In this document: positions 1-10,133 of the stretch, one piece after another
Numbering within the stretch: the first letter of the stretch is position 1
How the letters are laid out: every line of letters starts with the position of its first letter
The notes under the pieces: model-generated
Databases searched by the model: none
Seen by the model: only the letters and a program-made list of their open reading frames with translations
Told to the model about the DNA's origin: nothing
Origin: a virus
Taxonomy: Duplodnaviria; Heunggongvirae; Uroviricota; Caudoviricetes
Direction: 5' to 3' (one strand)
DNA length: 22,055 nt
IMG/VR virus record: IMGVR_UViG_2545824644_000014
Position numbers and translations under genes: made by a program

Positions 1-1002
1 TTACCCTCTATTGTCAAAAGGGTTCAATTCAACAGCAGCCTCTAAATGACCTGGAGCAAAATGCGCATAACGCATAGTCATTTTTATATCGCTATGCCCC
101 AGTATTTTTTGCAACACAAGAATATTTCCGCCCCGCATCATAAAATGACTGGCAAACGTGTGACGTAGCACATGAGTTAATTGCCCATCAGGAAGCTCGA
201 TCTTCGCTCTCTTAATTGCAGCGTCAAAAGCCTCATAACATGGTGAAAATAGCGCTCCTCGTTTTTTGGGAAGCATAGCCTGCAATTGAGGTGAAATCGG
301 TACAGTGCGGTTCTTCTTTCCTTTAGTTTTAACAAATGTGATTCGACCGGGCAGTACTTGAGATTGCTTTAATCCTTCTGCTTCACTCCACCGAGCACCA
401 GTCGCAAGCCCAATACGGACAACAACCCCCAAATCTTTATTCCGTGACTCATCACACGCAATCAGAAGGCGTTCAATCTCATCTACATACAGAAACGCCA
501 GTTCCTTTTCATCCTCACGAAACTTGCGAATACCAGTCAGGGGGTTTTCACCAGACCACTCCCCAAGGCGCTTCAGTTCGGCAAAAACAGCATGTAGATA
601 TGACTGCTCGCGATTAACGGTTGCTTCACTAAGTTTTTTCTTCCCCTTGGGATTCCATTCTCCTGATAGCCTTCTTTCCCGATAAGTGGCAAACATATTT
701 TTGTCAAACTGAGAAGCAAATGGATCTCCCAGCCTGGAACAAATCGCCTCAAGTTTGACTTTGCGCTCTGCACCAGAGGACAAGGTTTTACCGTACATCT
801 CAAACCAACGAGCAATCAACTCAGAAAGACGAGGACCAGAACCATCTTGAAACTCGTCTCCAACTCTACTATTCATTAAACGGCGCTCATAAGAGAGCGC
901 CTCACTTTTTGTCGCAAACTGTTTACGAATGCGTTTTCCCGATGCCCCGTAGGGATAACATTCGCAAAGCCATTTACCTGATGGAATCTTACGAACCGAC
1001 AT
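1..1002 (-). CDS. int: Phage tyrosine integrase (site-specific recombinase), complete 333 aa
   Basis: Full ORF with stop at the window start. C-terminal catalytic region HVLRHTFASHFMMRGGNILVLQKILGHSDIKMTMRYAHF carries the R..H-x-x-R..Y signature of tyrosine recombinases. Terminal position next to the repressor matches P2/186 prophage layout. Confidence 0.9.
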   Translation of the reverse strand: MSVRKIPSGKWLCECYPYGASGKRIRKQFATKSEALSYERRLMNSRVGDEFQDGSGPRLSELIARWFEMYGKTLSSGAERKVKLEAICSRLGDPFASQFDKNMFATYRERRLSGEWNPKGKKKLSEATVNREQSYLHAVFAELKRLGEWSGENPLTGIRKFREDEKELAFLYVDEIERLLIACDESRNKDLGVVVRIGLATGARWSEAEGLKQSQVLPGRITFVKTKGKKNRTVPISPQLQAMLPKKRGALFSPCYEAFDAAIKRAKIELPDGQLTHVLRHTFASHFMMRGGNILVLQKILGHSDIKMTMRYAHFAPGHLEAAVELNPFDNRG

Positions 1003-2050: not shown

Positions 2051-2455
2051 TCACCTACCCTTAGTTTCGTTATAGTCACGACCAGCGATACGGTTATTAC
2101 CACCAGAAATATTTAACTCACGTCCTGATGGCTGAGTTTCCTTTTCACTGATCGCACCTTTTAAAGCCCCAATCACCGCGTTTTTCACATCTAACGAAGC
2201 TGCTCGAAAGCGAGTAATCAACTCCTGCTCATCATCGTTATAAGTTTCAGGTGAGTGAATCCCCAACACAACATACTGAACATCAAGGCCAAAACGAGAC
2301 AGCGCTGCCAAATACGCAGCATCAGGAAAGCTATCTCCTTTCTCATATCTAAGCTGAGTTAGCTTTTTGACTCCACCAATGTCGCTCATGGCAACTTGAC
2401 TAAGTCCCAATCTTTCCCTTTCCTCACGCAACCGCTGACCAATATCATTTTTCAT
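2051..2455 (-). CDS. XRE-family helix-turn-helix immunity repressor (P2 C-like) with a C-terminal extension, 134 aa
   Basis: N-terminal QRLREERERLGLSQVAMSDIGGVKKLTQLRYEKG is a typical XRE/Cro-C1 HTH. Divergent from the Cox-like gene, in the position of the P2 C repressor. Confidence 0.75.
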   Translation of the reverse strand: MKNDIGQRLREERERLGLSQVAMSDIGGVKKLTQLRYEKGDSFPDAAYLAALSRFGLDVQYVVLGIHSPETYNDDEQELITRFRAASLDVKNAVIGALKGAISEKETQPSGRELNISGGNNRIAGRDYNETKGR

Positions 2456-4074: not shown

Positions 4075-4491
4075 ATGAACGCAAAAGAAAAAAACATTAT
4101 CAATACATTAAAAATAGTGTCAGCAGAGCAAGGCAAGCTGTCCAGGGTAGCCCAGAAAGATAATCAACATATGGCAGCGCTTTACGCACTGACCATCGCA
4201 ATAGCCACCTCTGAAGCAGCCAAAGTTATTGAGGAACAGAGCAAAGAAATCGACACTCTTAAAACACAGTCAACAGTTGCAGCCATGAATCCGTCCAGCA
4301 TTGGACGCTGCATTTATATTCTTGGTTCAGCAATGATGCTGCAATACACCATTATTGCCGAACTGCACGGCAAATACCTGATAACGCCTTACCACACAAA
4401 AGAGTCTGAGCTTCTGACAAATCTCCGCCTGATAGAACGCTCTCAAGCTGTATTCATTGATGACGCGCAACGTGCCGTATTTAACGCATAG
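4075..4491 (+). CDS. Hypothetical early protein, 138 aa
   Basis: ORF with a strong RBS (GGAGAT) 7 nt upstream of the ATG. Confidence 0.5.
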   Translation: MNAKEKNIINTLKIVSAEQGKLSRVAQKDNQHMAALYALTIAIATSEAAKVIEEQSKEIDTLKTQSTVAAMNPSSIGRCIYILGSAMMLQYTIIAELHGKYLITPYHTKESELLTNLRLIERSQAVFIDDAQRAVFNA

Positions 4492-5277: not shown

Positions 5278-5399
5278 GAAACCAGAACATGCACACACAA
5301 AAAAACCGCTTGCCATGCCTCAATCGGTCAGGTTACATTTCCGCTGCACCTCATAAAACGGGTGCCGGGATTCTCAACCCGATACAGAGCAAAGCGCAT

Positions 5400-5420
5400 A
5401 ACCGCGCAAGCGGTTTTTTT
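5400..5420 (+). terminator. Intrinsic terminator inside the early region
   Basis: Hairpin AACCGC-GCAA-GCGGTT with a GNRA-type loop, followed directly by a run of seven T. Confidence 0.45.
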
Positions 5421-5599
5421 GTGCGTACTGTATTGCCACGTCTTTTTCGCGTCAGAATTATGGCGGGGCGTACGGGGCCGACTTCGGTCGGGCCGGATTC
5501 TTTGCTCTCCGGTGTTGAGAACCCTGTACGTCTCGCCACCCCGAGATTCTCAACTCTGGATGGTGAGTTATTTCTATCACCGAGCAAAGAGGCCACACC

Positions 5600-5830
5600 A
5601 TGGCAGACCGCAAACAGCACCGCGCTATCGCGGAGCGTCGTCACATCCAGACTGAAATCAACCACAGACTTTCCCGCGCATCACGCGTCGCGCAAATCAT
5701 GCACATCAATATGCTGCATGAGCGCAGCCACGCACTATCAAACATTTATTCCGCCTCTGTTTTCAGCTATCTGGCGGATGATCTGCACGAGCTTCAACAG
5801 CTCATCCAGCAGCAAAACAAACTCCATTAA
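5600..5830 (+). CDS. Hypothetical protein, 76 aa
   Basis: RBS AAGAGG 7 nt upstream of the ATG. Lies between the repeat-containing region and the replication genes. Confidence 0.45.
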   Translation: MADRKQHRAIAERRHIQTEINHRLSRASRVAQIMHINMLHERSHALSNIYSASVFSYLADDLHELQQLIQQQNKLH

Positions 5831-5902
5831 TTCCTGTTCCGGGCCTTTCCTGCACCTTGCGGCGGGAGGCCTTCGCACATCTGTAACAAGAGGATTGCCG
5901 CA

Positions 5903-6268
5903 ATGATTCTCGCCAACGACTTTCTTGAATACCTGCTCAACACAGAACGTGATCTTGCCGCTCGCGTGCGTGATCGTTATGACATGTACCTGAAATCCCT
6001 GCCTGTACCGCAGCTCGCTGACGGAAAGATTGTTATTGATGGTCGCTACATGATTGACAGCCACGAGGGAAATTACAGGCTTTACCGCATTGAAGGTGGC
6101 ACCCCGTCCGTTATTGGCATTTACCAGCGCCCATCCTCTGCAATCGTCGATGTGATTGCCGACAGCATCCGCATCACACATCGCCATGCCGACACAGAAG
6201 ACACCGTGCTGGAAATTCAGCGGCTGGCTACAGTCTGCCGCGACACCCTGAATGGCATGACGAAGTAA
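5903..6268 (+). CDS. Hypothetical protein, 121 aa, immediately upstream of replication gene A
   Basis: ORF ending 7 nt before the A start, in the position of the small pre-A ORFs of P2. Confidence 0.5.
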   Translation: MILANDFLEYLLNTERDLAARVRDRYDMYLKSLPVPQLADGKIVIDGRYMIDSHEGNYRLYRIEGGTPSVIGIYQRPSSAIVDVIADSIRITHRHADTEDTVLEIQRLATVCRDTLNGMTK

Positions 6269-6274
6269 ATCACT

Positions 6275-9097
6275 ATGACGGCAGAGTACATCAGGGACTG
6301 GCAACAACCGCGCCACGCAGTGGGGCGTGAAGGAACGGGGATCCCCGCTCCTGAATCCGCGCTTTCCTCCTGGCTGGATGCCTACCGGGTAGAGAACGAG
6401 CGCCGCCAGGAAATGGCTGATGCGGCGTTCTCCGCCACGCCGCTGGGCAACCTGATTAATAAAAGCCTGGACGCACAGGAAAAACAGGACAAAACCATCA
6501 CACTGGCAGGAGACGCCAGAAAACAGGCACGCGGCGCGGTGGATGAAGCCATGGCCTCGCTGCGCCTGCTGCCGTCCTATCTGCGCGATCCGCTTATTCG
6601 CCACCTCTCCTTCCTGCGCAAAAAACAGGAAGCCGATCGCCGGAAAGGCAAAAAGAGCTGGCAGGCGGAACGCTATGCACACGGAACCCTGCGCAAAATA
6701 TTCGAACGTCTGGATAGCACTGACGGACGCTGGCTGACACCGGGTTATCGCTCCCTTGCCGGACGCGAACACCTGGACGATTTGCTTTACCTGCCGCAGC
6801 TCAACAAACACCAGATACAGACGCTGGCCACCATGACGGCGGCGATGTTCAGCAGCACCTTCGAAAAACTCTGCGATGGCTTTGGCGCGACCGATGGCGA
6901 GCTGACCATGGATGTAACCCTGAAGGCGTATCAGATGCTGGCCCGCATGGCGTTACACCTGCACGCCATGCCTCCACATTATGACGCACTGACAACAGAC
7001 AAAGACCGGAGGAACGAACCGGACACGGAGCTGCTGCCGGGCGCAATCCTTCGCCTGACCTGTGCGGAATGGTGGAAACGCAAACTGTGGCTGTTACGTT
7101 GCGAGTGGAGAGAAGAACAACTCCGCGCCGCCTGTCTGGTTTCCAGAAAAACATCACCCTATCTGAGCCAGGACGCGTTAAGCGAGTTTCGCGCACAGCG
7201 CGAGAAAACACGCGATTTCCTGAAAAGTTTCATGCTGGAAAATGAAGACGGGTTCACGATTGATCTCGAGACAGTGTATTACGCGGGAGTAAGTAACCCG
7301 GTTCACCGTAAGGCAGAAATGATGGCCACCATGAAGGGACTGGAACTTCTGGCCGAAGCCCGTGGCGACAAAGCGGTGTTTCTGACTGTCACCTGCCCGT
7401 CAAAATACCACGCCACAACGGAGAACGGTCATCCGAATCCCAAATGGAACGGGGCCACAATGCGCGACTCCAGCGATTACCTGGTTAACACGTTTTTTGC
7501 GGCGGTCCGCAAAAAACTGAACCGCGACGGCCTGCGCTGGTATGGCATCCGCACGGTGGAGCCTCATCATGACGGCACCGTGCACTGGCATATGATGGTC
7601 TTTGCACATCCGGAAGAAATCGACACCATTGTGTCCCATACCCGCGATATTGCCATTCAGGAAGACCGCCACGAGCTGGGCGATGACATAACTCCGCGTT
7701 TTAAGGCGGAGTACGTCGACGGCTCAAAAGGCACGCCAACCAGCTACATCGCCACCTACATCGGAAAGAACCTGGACAGCCGCGCCGTGGATGGCATCGA
7801 CCCGAAAACGGGCAAGCCACGCGTGGACCACGAAACCGGAAAATCAATGGCCGAGAGCGTGGAGCGCGCCATCGGCTGGGCGCGCCTTCACCGGGTCCGT
7901 CAGTTCCAGTTCTTTGGCATCCCCTCCCGTCAGGTATGGCGTGAACTGCGCCGCCTTGCCAGCCAGATGGCACGCAATCCGGAAGGCCCGCAACGGCTGA
8001 AAGATGATGCAATGGATGCGGTACTCGCTGCCGCCGATGCCGGGTGTTTTGCCACCTACATTAAAAAACAGGGTGGCGTGCTTGTTCCACGCAAGGACTA
8101 CCTGATTCGCACCGCCTACGACCTCGCAGATGAGCTGAACGATTACGGCGAACAGAGCGTACAGATTTACGGGATCTGGTCACCACTCATCGGGGAATCC
8201 TCCCGTGTGTGCACGCATCCGGATAACTGGAAGCTGGTAAGACGTAAACCGGAAGCGGAAGACAGCGCCCGCGAAAATGGTTTTGACCTTCAGGGCGGCC
8301 CTGCCGCCCCTTGGACTCGTGGCAATAACTGTCCCCGTGTACAGGAAACGGACAACAACGGGACAGAACAGCCGGAAGAACGGCCAGCACCGTGGCCGCA
8401 GCTCCCTGACGGCGTTGAAGTGAACGAATGGATGCGCTCACTGAAACGGCACGAACGCCGGGCGCTGATGCGTTCGCTTCGTGACAAACAGGCAAAAAAC
8501 AGCAGTGATGAAATGCAGAGCTGGACACAGAGCCGCAAACAGCAGCGGCCTTTGCCTGATAACCACGAATTACTCGCTAAAGAATGGCGGGAGTCTGCTG
8601 AATCTCTCGGCCTGCATATCGGTGAACAACAGATGCAGTACCTGTTACGGGGCGGCAGTCTGTACGTTGACGGCAGCATCATTGCACCGCAGGGATTTGA
8701 AATTGTACGCAAACCGGATACCCGCCCGGACAGCCGAATCACGCAGCTCTGGCAGCGCCTGAGCCGTAATCATGGCGTAAGCAGCACAGAGATCCGCCAT
8801 AACCCGGTCGCCAGCTATCTGGAACAACTGGGGGCATCAGACCCCGAAGCCGCCGCACGTCTGGCATCCACACTTCAGCAGGACCAGAACACCATGAAAA
8901 CACCCGTTACCGTGCTTTCTGACATGCTGCGCGCCATCCGCGACGCAGAGCACGCACAGAGAATCAGTGAAACCACTGAACGCGCCCACCGCAAAGCAGA
9001 CCTGCTGCGGGGTAGCCTGACCAGTGGAAACAAAAAACAGACAGAAACGGGACTCACGAATCCCGTAAATGAGCAAAAAACGCTCAGCGATATATGA
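6275..9097 (+). CDS. A: Phage replication initiation endonuclease (P2 gpA-like rolling-circle Rep), 940 aa
   Basis: HUH-type metal motif VHWHMMVF (codons near 7566-7589). Paired catalytic tyrosines in SYIATYIGK (TAC codons at 7745-7747 and 7757-7759), as in the Y-x3-Y motif of phiX174/P2 A-type initiators. Position is between early genes and the variable locus. Confidence 0.9.
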   Translation: MTAEYIRDWQQPRHAVGREGTGIPAPESALSSWLDAYRVENERRQEMADAAFSATPLGNLINKSLDAQEKQDKTITLAGDARKQARGAVDEAMASLRLLPSYLRDPLIRHLSFLRKKQEADRRKGKKSWQAERYAHGTLRKIFERLDSTDGRWLTPGYRSLAGREHLDDLLYLPQLNKHQIQTLATMTAAMFSSTFEKLCDGFGATDGELTMDVTLKAYQMLARMALHLHAMPPHYDALTTDKDRRNEPDTELLPGAILRLTCAEWWKRKLWLLRCEWREEQLRAACLVSRKTSPYLSQDALSEFRAQREKTRDFLKSFMLENEDGFTIDLETVYYAGVSNPVHRKAEMMATMKGLELLAEARGDKAVFLTVTCPSKYHATTENGHPNPKWNGATMRDSSDYLVNTFFAAVRKKLNRDGLRWYGIRTVEPHHDGTVHWHMMVFAHPEEIDTIVSHTRDIAIQEDRHELGDDITPRFKAEYVDGSKGTPTSYIATYIGKNLDSRAVDGIDPKTGKPRVDHETGKSMAESVERAIGWARLHRVRQFQFFGIPSRQVWRELRRLASQMARNPEGPQRLKDDAMDAVLAAADAGCFATYIKKQGGVLVPRKDYLIRTAYDLADELNDYGEQSVQIYGIWSPLIGESSRVCTHPDNWKLVRRKPEAEDSARENGFDLQGGPAAPWTRGNNCPRVQETDNNGTEQPEERPAPWPQLPDGVEVNEWMRSLKRHERRALMRSLRDKQAKNSSDEMQSWTQSRKQQRPLPDNHELLAKEWRESAESLGLHIGEQQMQYLLRGGSLYVDGSIIAPQGFEIVRKPDTRPDSRITQLWQRLSRNHGVSSTEIRHNPVASYLEQLGASDPEAAARLASTLQQDQNTMKTPVTVLSDMLRAIRDAEHAQRISETTERAHRKADLLRGSLTSGNKKQTETGLTNPVNEQKTLSDI

Positions 9098-9173: not shown

Positions 9174-10133
9174 ATGAAAATTTGTATCGACGACGGCTCC
9201 ACCAACATCAAGCTGGCATGGACTGAGAACGGCGAACGCCGCAACGCCATCAGCCCGAACAGCTTCAAGTCTGAATGGTCTGCGCCGTTCGGTGGCACGC
9301 AGCCCGCGAACTACATGCTTGATGGCGTGCGCTATGGTTTTGATCCGGTCAGCGATCGCTTTGTCCAGACGACCGACACGCAATACCAGTACAGCGATGT
9401 GAATGTCATTGCCATTCATCACGCGCTGGTCAAATCAGGCATCACGCCACAGGAGGTGGATGTGGTTGTCACCCTGCCACTGAGCGAGTATTTCGACACA
9501 AACGCACAGCCGGACATGGCCAACATCAACCGCAAAAAAGCGAACGTTATGCGCCCGGTGGAGTACCAGAACGGCGAAGCATTCACTATCCGTAACGTGC
9601 GGGTTATGCCTGAATCCATTCCGGCTGGCTTTAAGGCACTGGCTGACATGAGTCCTTTTGAATCCCTGCTGATTGTGGATTTGGGCGGAACCACGCTGGA
9701 TGTGGCAAAGGTTCAGGGGCAACTGGCAGGTATCAGCCAGGTGTTTTGCGATCCACACGTAGGCGTTTCTCTGATGGCCGATGCCGTACTGTCGGTGATG
9801 GCCACTAACGGTATGCGCACCAGTCACCACATCGCCAATACCATTATCGAACATCGCCATGATGAAGCCTGGCTGCGCCAGCACATCCACAATGACGCGC
9901 ATTACGCCAGCCTGATGGCGGTTATTCGTGAAAAGGAAGAAACACTGAAACAACGCGTGATCCGCGCGCTGGCGGTTTTTTCGGGTTACGGGCGGGTGAT
10001 GGTTGTCGGTGGAGGGGCGGAGATTGTGGCACCCGCTATCCGCGAAGCCTGCGGAGTTAATGCGACTTTCATCGCGGACGGGGTGCCACAGTTTGCTCTG
10101 GTTAATGGGCTGTACGCAATGGACAAGGAGTAA
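9174..10133 (+). CDS. parM: Actin-like ATPase of the ParM/StbA family (type II partition NTPase homologue), 319 aa
   Basis: N-terminus MKICIDDGSTNIKLAW closely matches R1 ParM as recalled (MLVFIDDGSTNIKLQW). Other recalled blocks also align: YSDVNV..HHAL, MPESIPAG, DLGGTTLD, GVSL, VGGGAE, LVNG. Confidence 0.85.
   Translation: MKICIDDGSTNIKLAWTENGERRNAISPNSFKSEWSAPFGGTQPANYMLDGVRYGFDPVSDRFVQTTDTQYQYSDVNVIAIHHALVKSGITPQEVDVVVTLPLSEYFDTNAQPDMANINRKKANVMRPVEYQNGEAFTIRNVRVMPESIPAGFKALADMSPFESLLIVDLGGTTLDVAKVQGQLAGISQVFCDPHVGVSLMADAVLSVMATNGMRTSHHIANTIIEHRHDEAWLRQHIHNDAHYASLMAVIREKEETLKQRVIRALAVFSGYGRVMVVGGGAEIVAPAIREACGVNATFIADGVPQFALVNGLYAMDKE

Follow-up and report, generated by a model that had tools for sequence, protein, structure and literature searches.

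Organization of the interval

The DNA analyzed here, 22,055 nucleotides (nt) of IMG/VR record IMGVR_UViG_2545824644_000014 (hereafter the window, meaning the whole stretch), is a P2-like prophage of the P88/Xuanwuvirus type from Escherichia coli. Between two small genes of its early operon, which encode proteins of 99 and 76 amino acids (aa), lies an interval that carries an IsrK-like RNA followed by a C4-type antisense RNA and a set of short pairing sites. We consider it very probable that this interval is the RNA part of an IsrK-C4 antisense immunity module of the P4/P1 type. The direct basis for this reading is the membership of both RNAs in known families, the colinear layout, the three-way covariation of the pairing sites, the overlap of one of these sites (b2) with a ribosome-binding site (RBS), the homology of the 76-aa protein to P4 epsilon, and the conservation of the open reading frame (ORF) that crosses the module. 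The features are listed below, with the pairing sites named according to the P1 nomenclature.

5289-5906, plus strand: 205-codon 'eta/Ash-like' ORF that crosses the whole RNA module and overlaps the epsilon-like gene out of frame
5293-5313, plus strand: upstream arm (ACACACAAAAAAACCGCTTGC), complementary to the terminator 3' arm, the U-tract and the next bases (5406-5426)
5310-5339, plus strand: sigma-70 promoter-like site (TTGCCA-18 nt-TACATT, from a promoter scan), predicted start at about 5346
5346-5420, plus strand: IsrK-like RNA, with hairpin 1 (5346-5365), hairpin 2 carrying a1 in its loop (5366-5381), b1 and a terminator (5400-5420)
5371-5378, plus strand: site a1 (TTCTCAAC)
5386-5394, plus strand: site b1 (AGAGCAAAG)
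5456-5543, plus strand: C4-type antisense RNA, with a closing stem (5461-5477/5522-5538), hairpin 1 with a UUCG loop (5478-5491), hairpin 2 (5492-5513) and the a' junction
5500-5508: site b' (CTTTGCTCT), in the loop of C4 hairpin 2
5514-5521: site a' (GTTGAGAA), in the single-stranded C4 junction
5547-5554, plus strand: target site a2 (TTCTCAAC)
5558-5567, plus strand: conserved element GGATGGTGAG, a near copy of the 5' strand of the C4 closing stem
5582-5590, plus strand: target site b2 (GAGCAAAGA)
5600-5830, plus strand: 76-aa epsilon-like 'derepression' (anti-repressor) gene

The IsrK-like and C4-type RNAs

Two matches in the window passed the curated Rfam cut-offs. The IsrK-like RNA scored 63.1 bits against Rfam RF01394 (gathering score 50) and is equivalent to seqA of P4 and to the a1b1 element of P1. 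Its predicted fold agrees with that of the isrK family, namely two hairpins and an intrinsic terminator. A preliminary description, made from the letters of the window, had placed a terminator with a GNRA loop and seven T residues at 5400-5420, and a terminator scan found it there, with a stem of 5400-5405/5410-5415, a GCAA loop and the T residues at 5414-5420. The GNRA loop is not conserved (GCCA in most relatives). The terminator is the 3' hairpin of the Rfam match and ends the IsrK-like RNA, the likely identity of the small RNA that had been suggested to end at this point.

For comparison, 82 related loci were reduced to 43 unique versions of the interval, which were aligned. Both hexamers of the promoter-like site at 5310-5339 are invariant among these 43 relatives. 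The -10 hexamer ends 7 nt before the start of the isrK model, the same distance as for the annotated P1c4 (P51b) promoter of P1, and consensus-like promoters were found at the same place in other modules. Judging from these sequence features, the site is a candidate promoter for the transcript of the IsrK-like and C4-type RNAs.

The spacer between the IsrK-like terminator and the C4-type RNA (5421-5455) measures 35 nt in P88-like modules versus 24-25 nt in the modules of Stx phages, ST64B, the Yersinia phage, and P1. An extra U-rich block (CTTTTTCGC...) creates within it a second promoter-like spacing (TTGCCA-17-AATTAT, 5433-5461), which is probably non-functional. We rejected this second site as a promoter of the C4-type RNA because its -35 hexamer reads TCGCCA in about half of the relatives, because its predicted start would fall within the C4 closing stem, and because it exists only through the extra ~11 nt in the spacer of P88-like modules.

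The C4-type RNA matched the full length of the Rfam model RF01695 with 78.5 bits (gathering score 45), and its minimum free energy (MFE) fold is the family consensus (-47.6 kcal/mol, z = -4.9). Covariation was observed in the scaffold, with two compensatory pairs in the closing stem (100% paired), two in hairpin 1 and one in hairpin 2. Site b' occupies the 3' end of the hairpin-2 loop and reaches the first base of the 3' strand of the stem. The UUCG hairpin that had been reported as a separate element at 5476-5494 is instead hairpin 1 of this RNA: CCGAC-UUCG-GUCGG is present at 5478-5491, and the outer bases of the reported span belong to the neighbouring C4 helices. A scan for transfer RNA (tRNA) and transfer-messenger RNA genes found none, so this hairpin does not come from a tRNA. 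The mature form, predicted from an alignment with the P1 c4 RNA as annotated, spans approximately 5462-5540 (~79 nt); its ends resemble those of the P1 RNA, with a 5' G after AAUUAU and a 3' GCCACC.

Downstream of the C4-type RNA, the conserved element GGATGGTGAG is predicted to pair with the C4 3' strand (5532-5541), which would place a2 in a hairpin loop as long as the transcript is unprocessed. In the alignment 89% of cells were paired for this helix against 31-42% in slid controls, and four compensatory pairs were found across P1 and Stx-phage modules. The equivalent element in P4 is GCTATCGCC/GGCGATAGC.

Covariation of the six pairing sites

The octamer TTCTCAAC, previously described as present three times (5371 and 5547 direct, 5514 inverted), has exactly three copies in the window, with the first two on the plus strand, the third on the minus strand, and all of them within 184 nt. 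About 0.55 copies would be expected in 22 kb, and three were reached in 2 of 100 shuffles. These copies are a1, a2 and a'. A second triplet that had not been described, GAGCAAAG, was found at 5387 and 5582 (plus strand) and 5500 (minus strand), that is, in b1, b2 and b'. A fourth copy of GAGCAAAG, at 4239-4246 (plus strand) inside a 138-aa gene, may be due to chance (0.84 expected per window).

Among the 43 unique versions, the RNA scaffold is almost invariant and nearly all variation falls in the six pairing sites. We observed 16 site combinations, made up of at least five a-types and at least nine b-types that reassort. In every combination, complementarity is maintained among the three a-sites and likewise among the three b-sites; another natural site type among the relatives is TTTCGCAG/CTACACAAG. 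Specifically, a2 is complementary to a' and b2 to b' in every specificity type, and compensatory changes on both sides were found for all four helices when pairs were counted on the 37-sequence P88-like alignment (A2):

a1:a', 4 of 7 pairs changed on both sides, 100% of cells paired
b1:b', 5 of 8 pairs changed on both sides, 100% of cells paired
a':a2, 4 of 8 pairs changed on both sides, 92% of cells paired
b':b2, 5 of 9 pairs changed on both sides, 97.5% of cells paired

In controls in which the 3' partner was slid by 1-3 columns, only 39-47% of cells were paired. Departures from Watson-Crick pairing inside these helices were mostly G.U on the plus-strand RNA, which argues for RNA pairing and not for protein-binding sites. 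The same three-way match was retained in distant modules with entirely different site sequences. Predicted duplexes range from -7 to -12 kcal/mol per site for cognate partners, and those of non-cognate partners are mostly weaker than -5 kcal/mol, so the site types look largely orthogonal.

In its layout, this arrangement agrees with the C4 family. Both a' and b' are complementary to sites upstream (a1 and b1) and downstream (a2 and b2), and the downstream target overlaps the RBS of the first gene: b2 covers part of the Shine-Dalgarno sequence AAGAGG (5587-5592) of the 76-aa gene, the ATG of which is at 5600.

Some further variation in the sites was observed outside the window. Two genomes in IMG/VR, 2526164634 (L074/L082) and 2537561977 (L019/L081), carry two P88-like modules each, with differing a/b types. 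In a third genome (L053/L054) both copies are of one type, and the ORF of one of them is broken; these genomes are too few to show whether co-resident modules avoid having a type in common. In Yersinia phage vB_YpM_39 (L088, ~1410-1425), b2 overlaps the downstream start codon (ATCACCATGAC), not the Shine-Dalgarno sequence. In several distant modules (L084-L088) the b1:b' helix contains one or two G.U pairs and b2 is fully or more fully Watson-Crick, a difference by which the upstream decoy would bind less tightly than the true operator; both helices are perfect in the window.

The epsilon-like gene and the ORF that crosses the module

The 76-aa product of the gene downstream of b2 matches the Pfam family PF25738, Derepression protein (33.8 bits, cut-off 27), and shares 34% identity over 50 aa with P4 epsilon (BLASTP, E = 4e-10), and the gene is annotated as 'derepression protein' in some records. 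P4 employs epsilon as an anti-repressor against the repressor of P2. In the window, the epsilon-like gene is the first after b2, whereas in P4 epsilon lies farther down the operon controlled by CI RNA. We presume that this gene is the regulated target of the module.

The preliminary description had recognized no acceptable ORF in the interval. The 205-codon ORF at 5289-5906 indeed has a weak RBS, but its start codon, its open frame, and its junction with the next gene are conserved. It begins with an ATG, and 29 of 32 unique relatives keep the frame open; most of the distinct upstream contexts retain an in-frame ATG directly behind the stop of the preceding gene. At its other end, it terminates in an ATGA on the start codon of the 121-aa gene that follows, an overlap kept in nearly all of these contexts. 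Relative to the C4 start, its frame is that of P4 eta/kil and of the long ORFs of ST64B, 1720a-02, and Stx2_131990. The epsilon-like gene is out of frame with this ORF, and a stop at 5564 precedes its ATG in its own frame. Although the ORF is kept open, substitutions show no third-position bias in its frame, so selection seems to act on translatability and not on the protein product. Its openness over the epsilon overlap alone is not significant (p ~0.06-0.29). A conserved coding gene across the interval had been named as an outcome that would speak against a regulatory region; in form, 5289-5906 is such an ORF, and it coexists with the RNA genes, as eta does in P4.

This ORF is also the reason why protein labels have been given to the interval. 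In RefSeq NC_049391 it is annotated as a transcriptional regulator, and in PV468777 the equivalent stretch is 'similar to ash family protein'. Against Pfam Phage_ASH (PF10554), its product scored 18.6 bits, below the cut-off of 26 and thus outside the family, while the same model gave 82 bits for P4 and 43 bits for ST64B. As a separate observation, Phage_ASH itself appears to consist largely of the IsrK/C4 RNA module translated in one frame. Its matches coincide exactly with the RNA part of the window (5334-5612, weak), of P4 (L091, 8168-8812), and of ST64B (L086, 847-2004), and RNA genes come to bear protein labels in this way.

Prophage context and prevalence

The plus-strand early operon comprises several small genes followed by the replication endonuclease gene gpA, with the late genes after it. 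The genes that bear on the interpretation of the module, and one further gene directly 3' of gpA, are the following.

1-1002, minus strand: integrase, facing the plus-strand early operon
2051-2455, minus strand: helix-turn-helix repressor-like gene adjoining the early operon (function from annotation only)
5903-6268, plus strand: 121-aa gene
6275-9097, plus strand: gpA (Pfam Phage_GPA, 438 bits; RefSeq annotation agrees)
9174-10133, plus strand: intact ParM-type plasmid segregation gene (Pfam StbA_N, 275 bits; ParM C-terminal domain, 231 bits)

The 121-aa protein has no similarity to P4 orf151 or orf106 and belongs to no Pfam or NCBIfam family. By analogy, this gene and gpA could fall under polarity or termination control; P4 is the only precedent for their regulation. 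Between the epsilon-like and 121-aa genes, a block at 5836-5885 (TTCCGGGCCTTTCCTGCACCTTGCGGCGGGAGGCCTTCGCACATC) that contains a GGCC...GGCC inverted repeat is near-invariant in relatives, with variable flanks.

The 701 bases around the interval are 100% identical to E. coli strain TUM9812, in which the ParM-type gene is annotated as a pseudogene and is followed by a 'plasmid partitioning/stability' gene. The locus was found in 1296 of 5426 complete E. coli genomes, about a quarter. Among isolated phages, those nearest to it are P88-like (92% identity), followed by Citrobacter phage Shae_phiSM (85%). A search of genome contigs with the 76-aa protein returned two loci only. A literature search found no description of an IsrK/C4 module in P88/Xuanwuvirus phages.

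Proposed mechanism

Promoter activity, processing, translational repression, polarity, and bypass are all steps that we infer from better-known systems of this class. A transcript would start at about 5346 from the internal promoter-like site. Most of these transcripts would stop at the terminator and yield an IsrK-like RNA of ~75 nt that carries the decoy sites a1 and b1. Those that read through would be processed to the C4-like RNA of ~79 nt, as RNase P does in P1 and P4, and its exposed b' loop and a' junction would pair with a2 and b2. Because b2 overlaps the Shine-Dalgarno sequence, pairing of the C4-like RNA there would block translation of the epsilon-like anti-repressor. Polarity probably also limits transcription into the 121-aa gene and gene A. 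In turn, a1 and b1, either in cis or on the short RNA, would compete for the C4 loops and so adjust the switch.

Transcripts that begin at the early promoter farther upstream probably escape this control. They carry the start of the ORF 5289-5906 and would be translatable through the module, as in the case of P4 eta, and they also carry a 21-nt arm able to sequester the 3' half of the terminator. By analogy with P4, such translated transcripts may escape both the terminator and the C4-like RNA. Since the phage has its own repressor candidate, the module probably provides a secondary, anti-repressor immunity and not the primary one. The suggestion of a control point ahead of the replication genes is supported.

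A number of points weigh against this interpretation. RefSeq annotates nothing, and no RNA, between the 99-aa and 76-aa genes. The promoter-like site at 5310-5339 agrees with the consensus at 9 of 12 positions, and the ORF 5289-5906 is broken in 3 of the 32 unique relatives. Unlike P4, the window also contains a protein repressor candidate (2051-2455). In P4, moreover, the first gene after b2 is kil, nested in the eta frame, whereas in the window it is the epsilon-like gene, out of frame. The c4-a1b1 model (Rfam RF03163) gave 15.9 bits against a gathering score of 46.7; we rejected that identity, as the score is below threshold and the overlapping isrK model fits instead. Finally, the authors of the work on Gifsy-1 interpreted IsrK as activating by way of the long transcript and did not invoke repression by a C4-like RNA (PMC4825925), so the effect of a1 and b1 could have either sign. 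The finding is real and non-random, but it is explained by a known class of system. Three features are additions of this lineage: the 21-nt arm, the extra length of the spacer between the RNAs, and a target gene that lies within the eta-like ORF in a different frame.

Alternative explanations

The best surviving alternative is that the module acts as replication immunity in the manner of P4, with pairing of the C4-like RNA to the sites on either side of it leading to premature Rho-dependent termination before gene A and repression of the epsilon-like gene being only a means. P4 is the closest available RNA match (isrK 60.8 bits, C4 74.9 bits), both phages have an epsilon homologue and a replication gene downstream, and in each the module is traversed in the same frame by an ORF of the eta type. 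A published summary of the P4 mechanism deals with CI/seqA and with the translation of eta from the upstream promoter, which prevents immunity-specific termination (PMC10111431; see also PMC3632133). On the other hand, a Rho-dependent site, such as timm of P4, is not identifiable by sequence, gpA is unrelated to P4 alpha, and the module lies in the middle of the operon of a phage with its own repressor, while in P4 it provides the primary immunity. We regard this explanation as possible, with the balance tilting against it.

A second alternative is a cis-acting attenuator. The preliminary description had pointed out that an upstream segment is complementary to the terminator 3' arm and its T-tract; the complementarity is real and longer than reported. 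An inverted-repeat search delimited arms of 21 nt (5293-5313 and 5406-5426) with 20 of 21 positions (95%) complementary, and the MFE fold of 5285-5428 uses this long-range helix instead of the terminator hairpin (-54.4 kcal/mol, z = -6.5). The upstream arm would act as a regulated anti-terminator, or, in a variant of this explanation, the 21-bp duplex would be a processing site for RNase III. The core of the arm (A7/A5-CCGCTTGC) is kept behind at least eight different and unrelated upstream genes, so the arm belongs to the module. As it lies upstream of the internal start, only transcripts from the early promoter would include it.

Several observations make an attenuator as the main function of the interval improbable, although it could coexist with C4 control. 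The upstream arm competes for the 3' and not the 5' arm of the terminator, so the local 6-bp hairpin should form first. Both arms are invariant and the helix shows no covariation; where a base does vary, at 5408 alone (A to C in most relatives), the upstream arm has no compensating change. The arm is confined to P88-like modules and is absent from those of P1, P4, Stx phages, and the Yersinia phage. Most of 106 unique viral loci with a C4 RNA lack it as well, and among them long complements accompany P88-like terminators exclusively; some ST64B/1720a-type modules have a 9-nt complement, which may be due to chance. The segment is also open to other readings. Besides an RNase III site, the helix may reflect part of an UP-like promoter element, given an A-tract at approximately -47 to -41 that could be UP-element-like, and the arm equals codons 2-9 of the conserved ORF. 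As an extra layer upon the antisense module, an anti-terminator arm is reasonable but unproven.

The two remaining explanations have very little probability. That the interval is simply protein-coding, with 5289-5906 coding for a transcriptional regulator or a member of the Ash family and with RNA matches that are incidental, would fit the conserved open frame, the annotations in NC_049391 and PV468777, and the weak Phage_ASH match, but it is contradicted by the compensatory RNA covariation and three-way site complementarity, by Rfam scores far above the gathering thresholds, by the lack of third-position bias and a Pfam score under the cut-off, and by the complete overlap of a bona fide epsilon homologue in another frame. 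That a regulatory protein binds the DNA of the TTCTCAAC and GAGCAAAG repeats as operators or iterons, as had been proposed for the former, would fit three copies of each in both orientations near replication genes, but the inverted copies coincide exactly with the unpaired loop and junction of an RNA scaffold that covaries, the helix departures are mostly G.U on the plus-strand RNA, one copy overlaps the Shine-Dalgarno sequence, and the homologous sites are established RNA targets in P1 and P4.

Implications

The mechanism class to which we assign the module, that of IsrK-C4 antisense immunity, has been known since the 1990s and current understanding of it is not overturned. What the analysis brings to light is an annotation gap: about one in four complete E. 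coli genomes has this locus, for which RefSeq chromosomes give no annotation and other records a protein label. It also indicates that a P2-like phage of the helper type shares an RNA immunity and epsilon cassette with the satellite P4, which bears on the origin of the P4 left operon and on cross-talk between helper and satellite. In addition, the hypervariable, self-complementary sites supply ready and apparently orthogonal antisense/target pairs for tests of RNA-based heteroimmunity.

P4-like satellites share both the RNA system and the epsilon anti-repressor family. Against this background we put forward, tentatively and as somewhat unlikely in its entirety, a joint reading of the observations. 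In it, the six sites would form a combinatorial immunity 'barcode' of freely reassorting types, and selection in P88-like prophages would favour its diversification. Helper-type phages and P4-like satellites that share a host could then avoid or exploit mutual control of their anti-repressors. Early transcripts would bypass the module through eta-like translation together with the 21-nt arm, a device that would be new in its details.

Comparison with known systems

The tandem of isrK followed by C4 was also found in P4, Stx phages, ST64B, 1720a-02, a Yersinia phage, and the Citrobacter phage. Among these related systems, the anti-immunity locus of the phage-plasmid N15, cited as a relative by Barquist 2013, resembles the window as interpreted here in that a small processed C4-like RNA (CA RNA) controls the anti-repressor gene antA. 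The C4 region of the window is 76% identical to N15 DNA, but the target genes and the genome context differ.

The isrK-orf45/STnc1160-anrP locus of the Salmonella prophage Gifsy-1 (Hershko-Shalev 2016, PMC4825925) is another instance of the system. As proposed for the window, an IsrK RNA that is transcribed from a promoter of its own and ends at a leaky terminator precedes a complementary processed RNA and then an anti-repressor gene, and the short RNA competes for pairing within the long transcript. The two differ in that Gifsy-1 is a lambdoid prophage, in which AnrP is produced through translational coupling with orf45 and the output is the antiterminator AntQ (PMC4825925).

The immunity region of P4 (seqA-CI RNA-seqC) contains both Rfam families in the same order as the window. 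Its a and b sites flank the RNA, with b2 on the Shine-Dalgarno sequence of the first downstream gene (kil), and the eta ORF crosses the module in the same frame, beginning upstream of the internal promoter, with an epsilon homologue and a replication gene downstream. Translation of eta from the upstream promoter was reportedly shown by Forti et al. in 1999 to prevent immunity-specific termination. Unlike the window, a complete P2-like phage with a repressor candidate, P4 is a satellite with the RNA as its only immunity factor. Its replication gene is alpha instead of gpA, and the longer inter-RNA spacer and the 21-nt upstream complement of the terminator are found in the window.

In P1, the C4 model gave 68.8 bits and c4-a1b1 51 bits, while isrK reached 35.1 bits, below its gathering score of 50. 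The record of P1, the relative with the best annotation, marks a1, b1, the c4 RNA, a2, b2, and icd, all colinear with the sites of the window and with b2 on the Shine-Dalgarno sequence. The full order in P1/P7 immI is likewise that of the window, namely promoter, a1, b1, terminator-like hairpin, c4, a2, b2/Shine-Dalgarno, and small ORF, and in P1 too a1 occupies a hairpin loop, b' the loop of c4 and a' its junction. The target is Icd/Ant in P1 versus a 76-aa protein of the P4 epsilon type in the window, and the P1 module forms a separate operon under the C1 repressor, whereas that of the window lies inside the early lytic operon and is spanned by an eta-like ORF, the corresponding frame being closed in P1. 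The likeness probably extends to function, since c4 of P1 controls an anti-repressor pathway as a secondary immunity beside a protein repressor. According to what Citron and Schuster are said to have reported in 1990, specificity in a' and b' underlies the heteroimmunity of P1 and P7.

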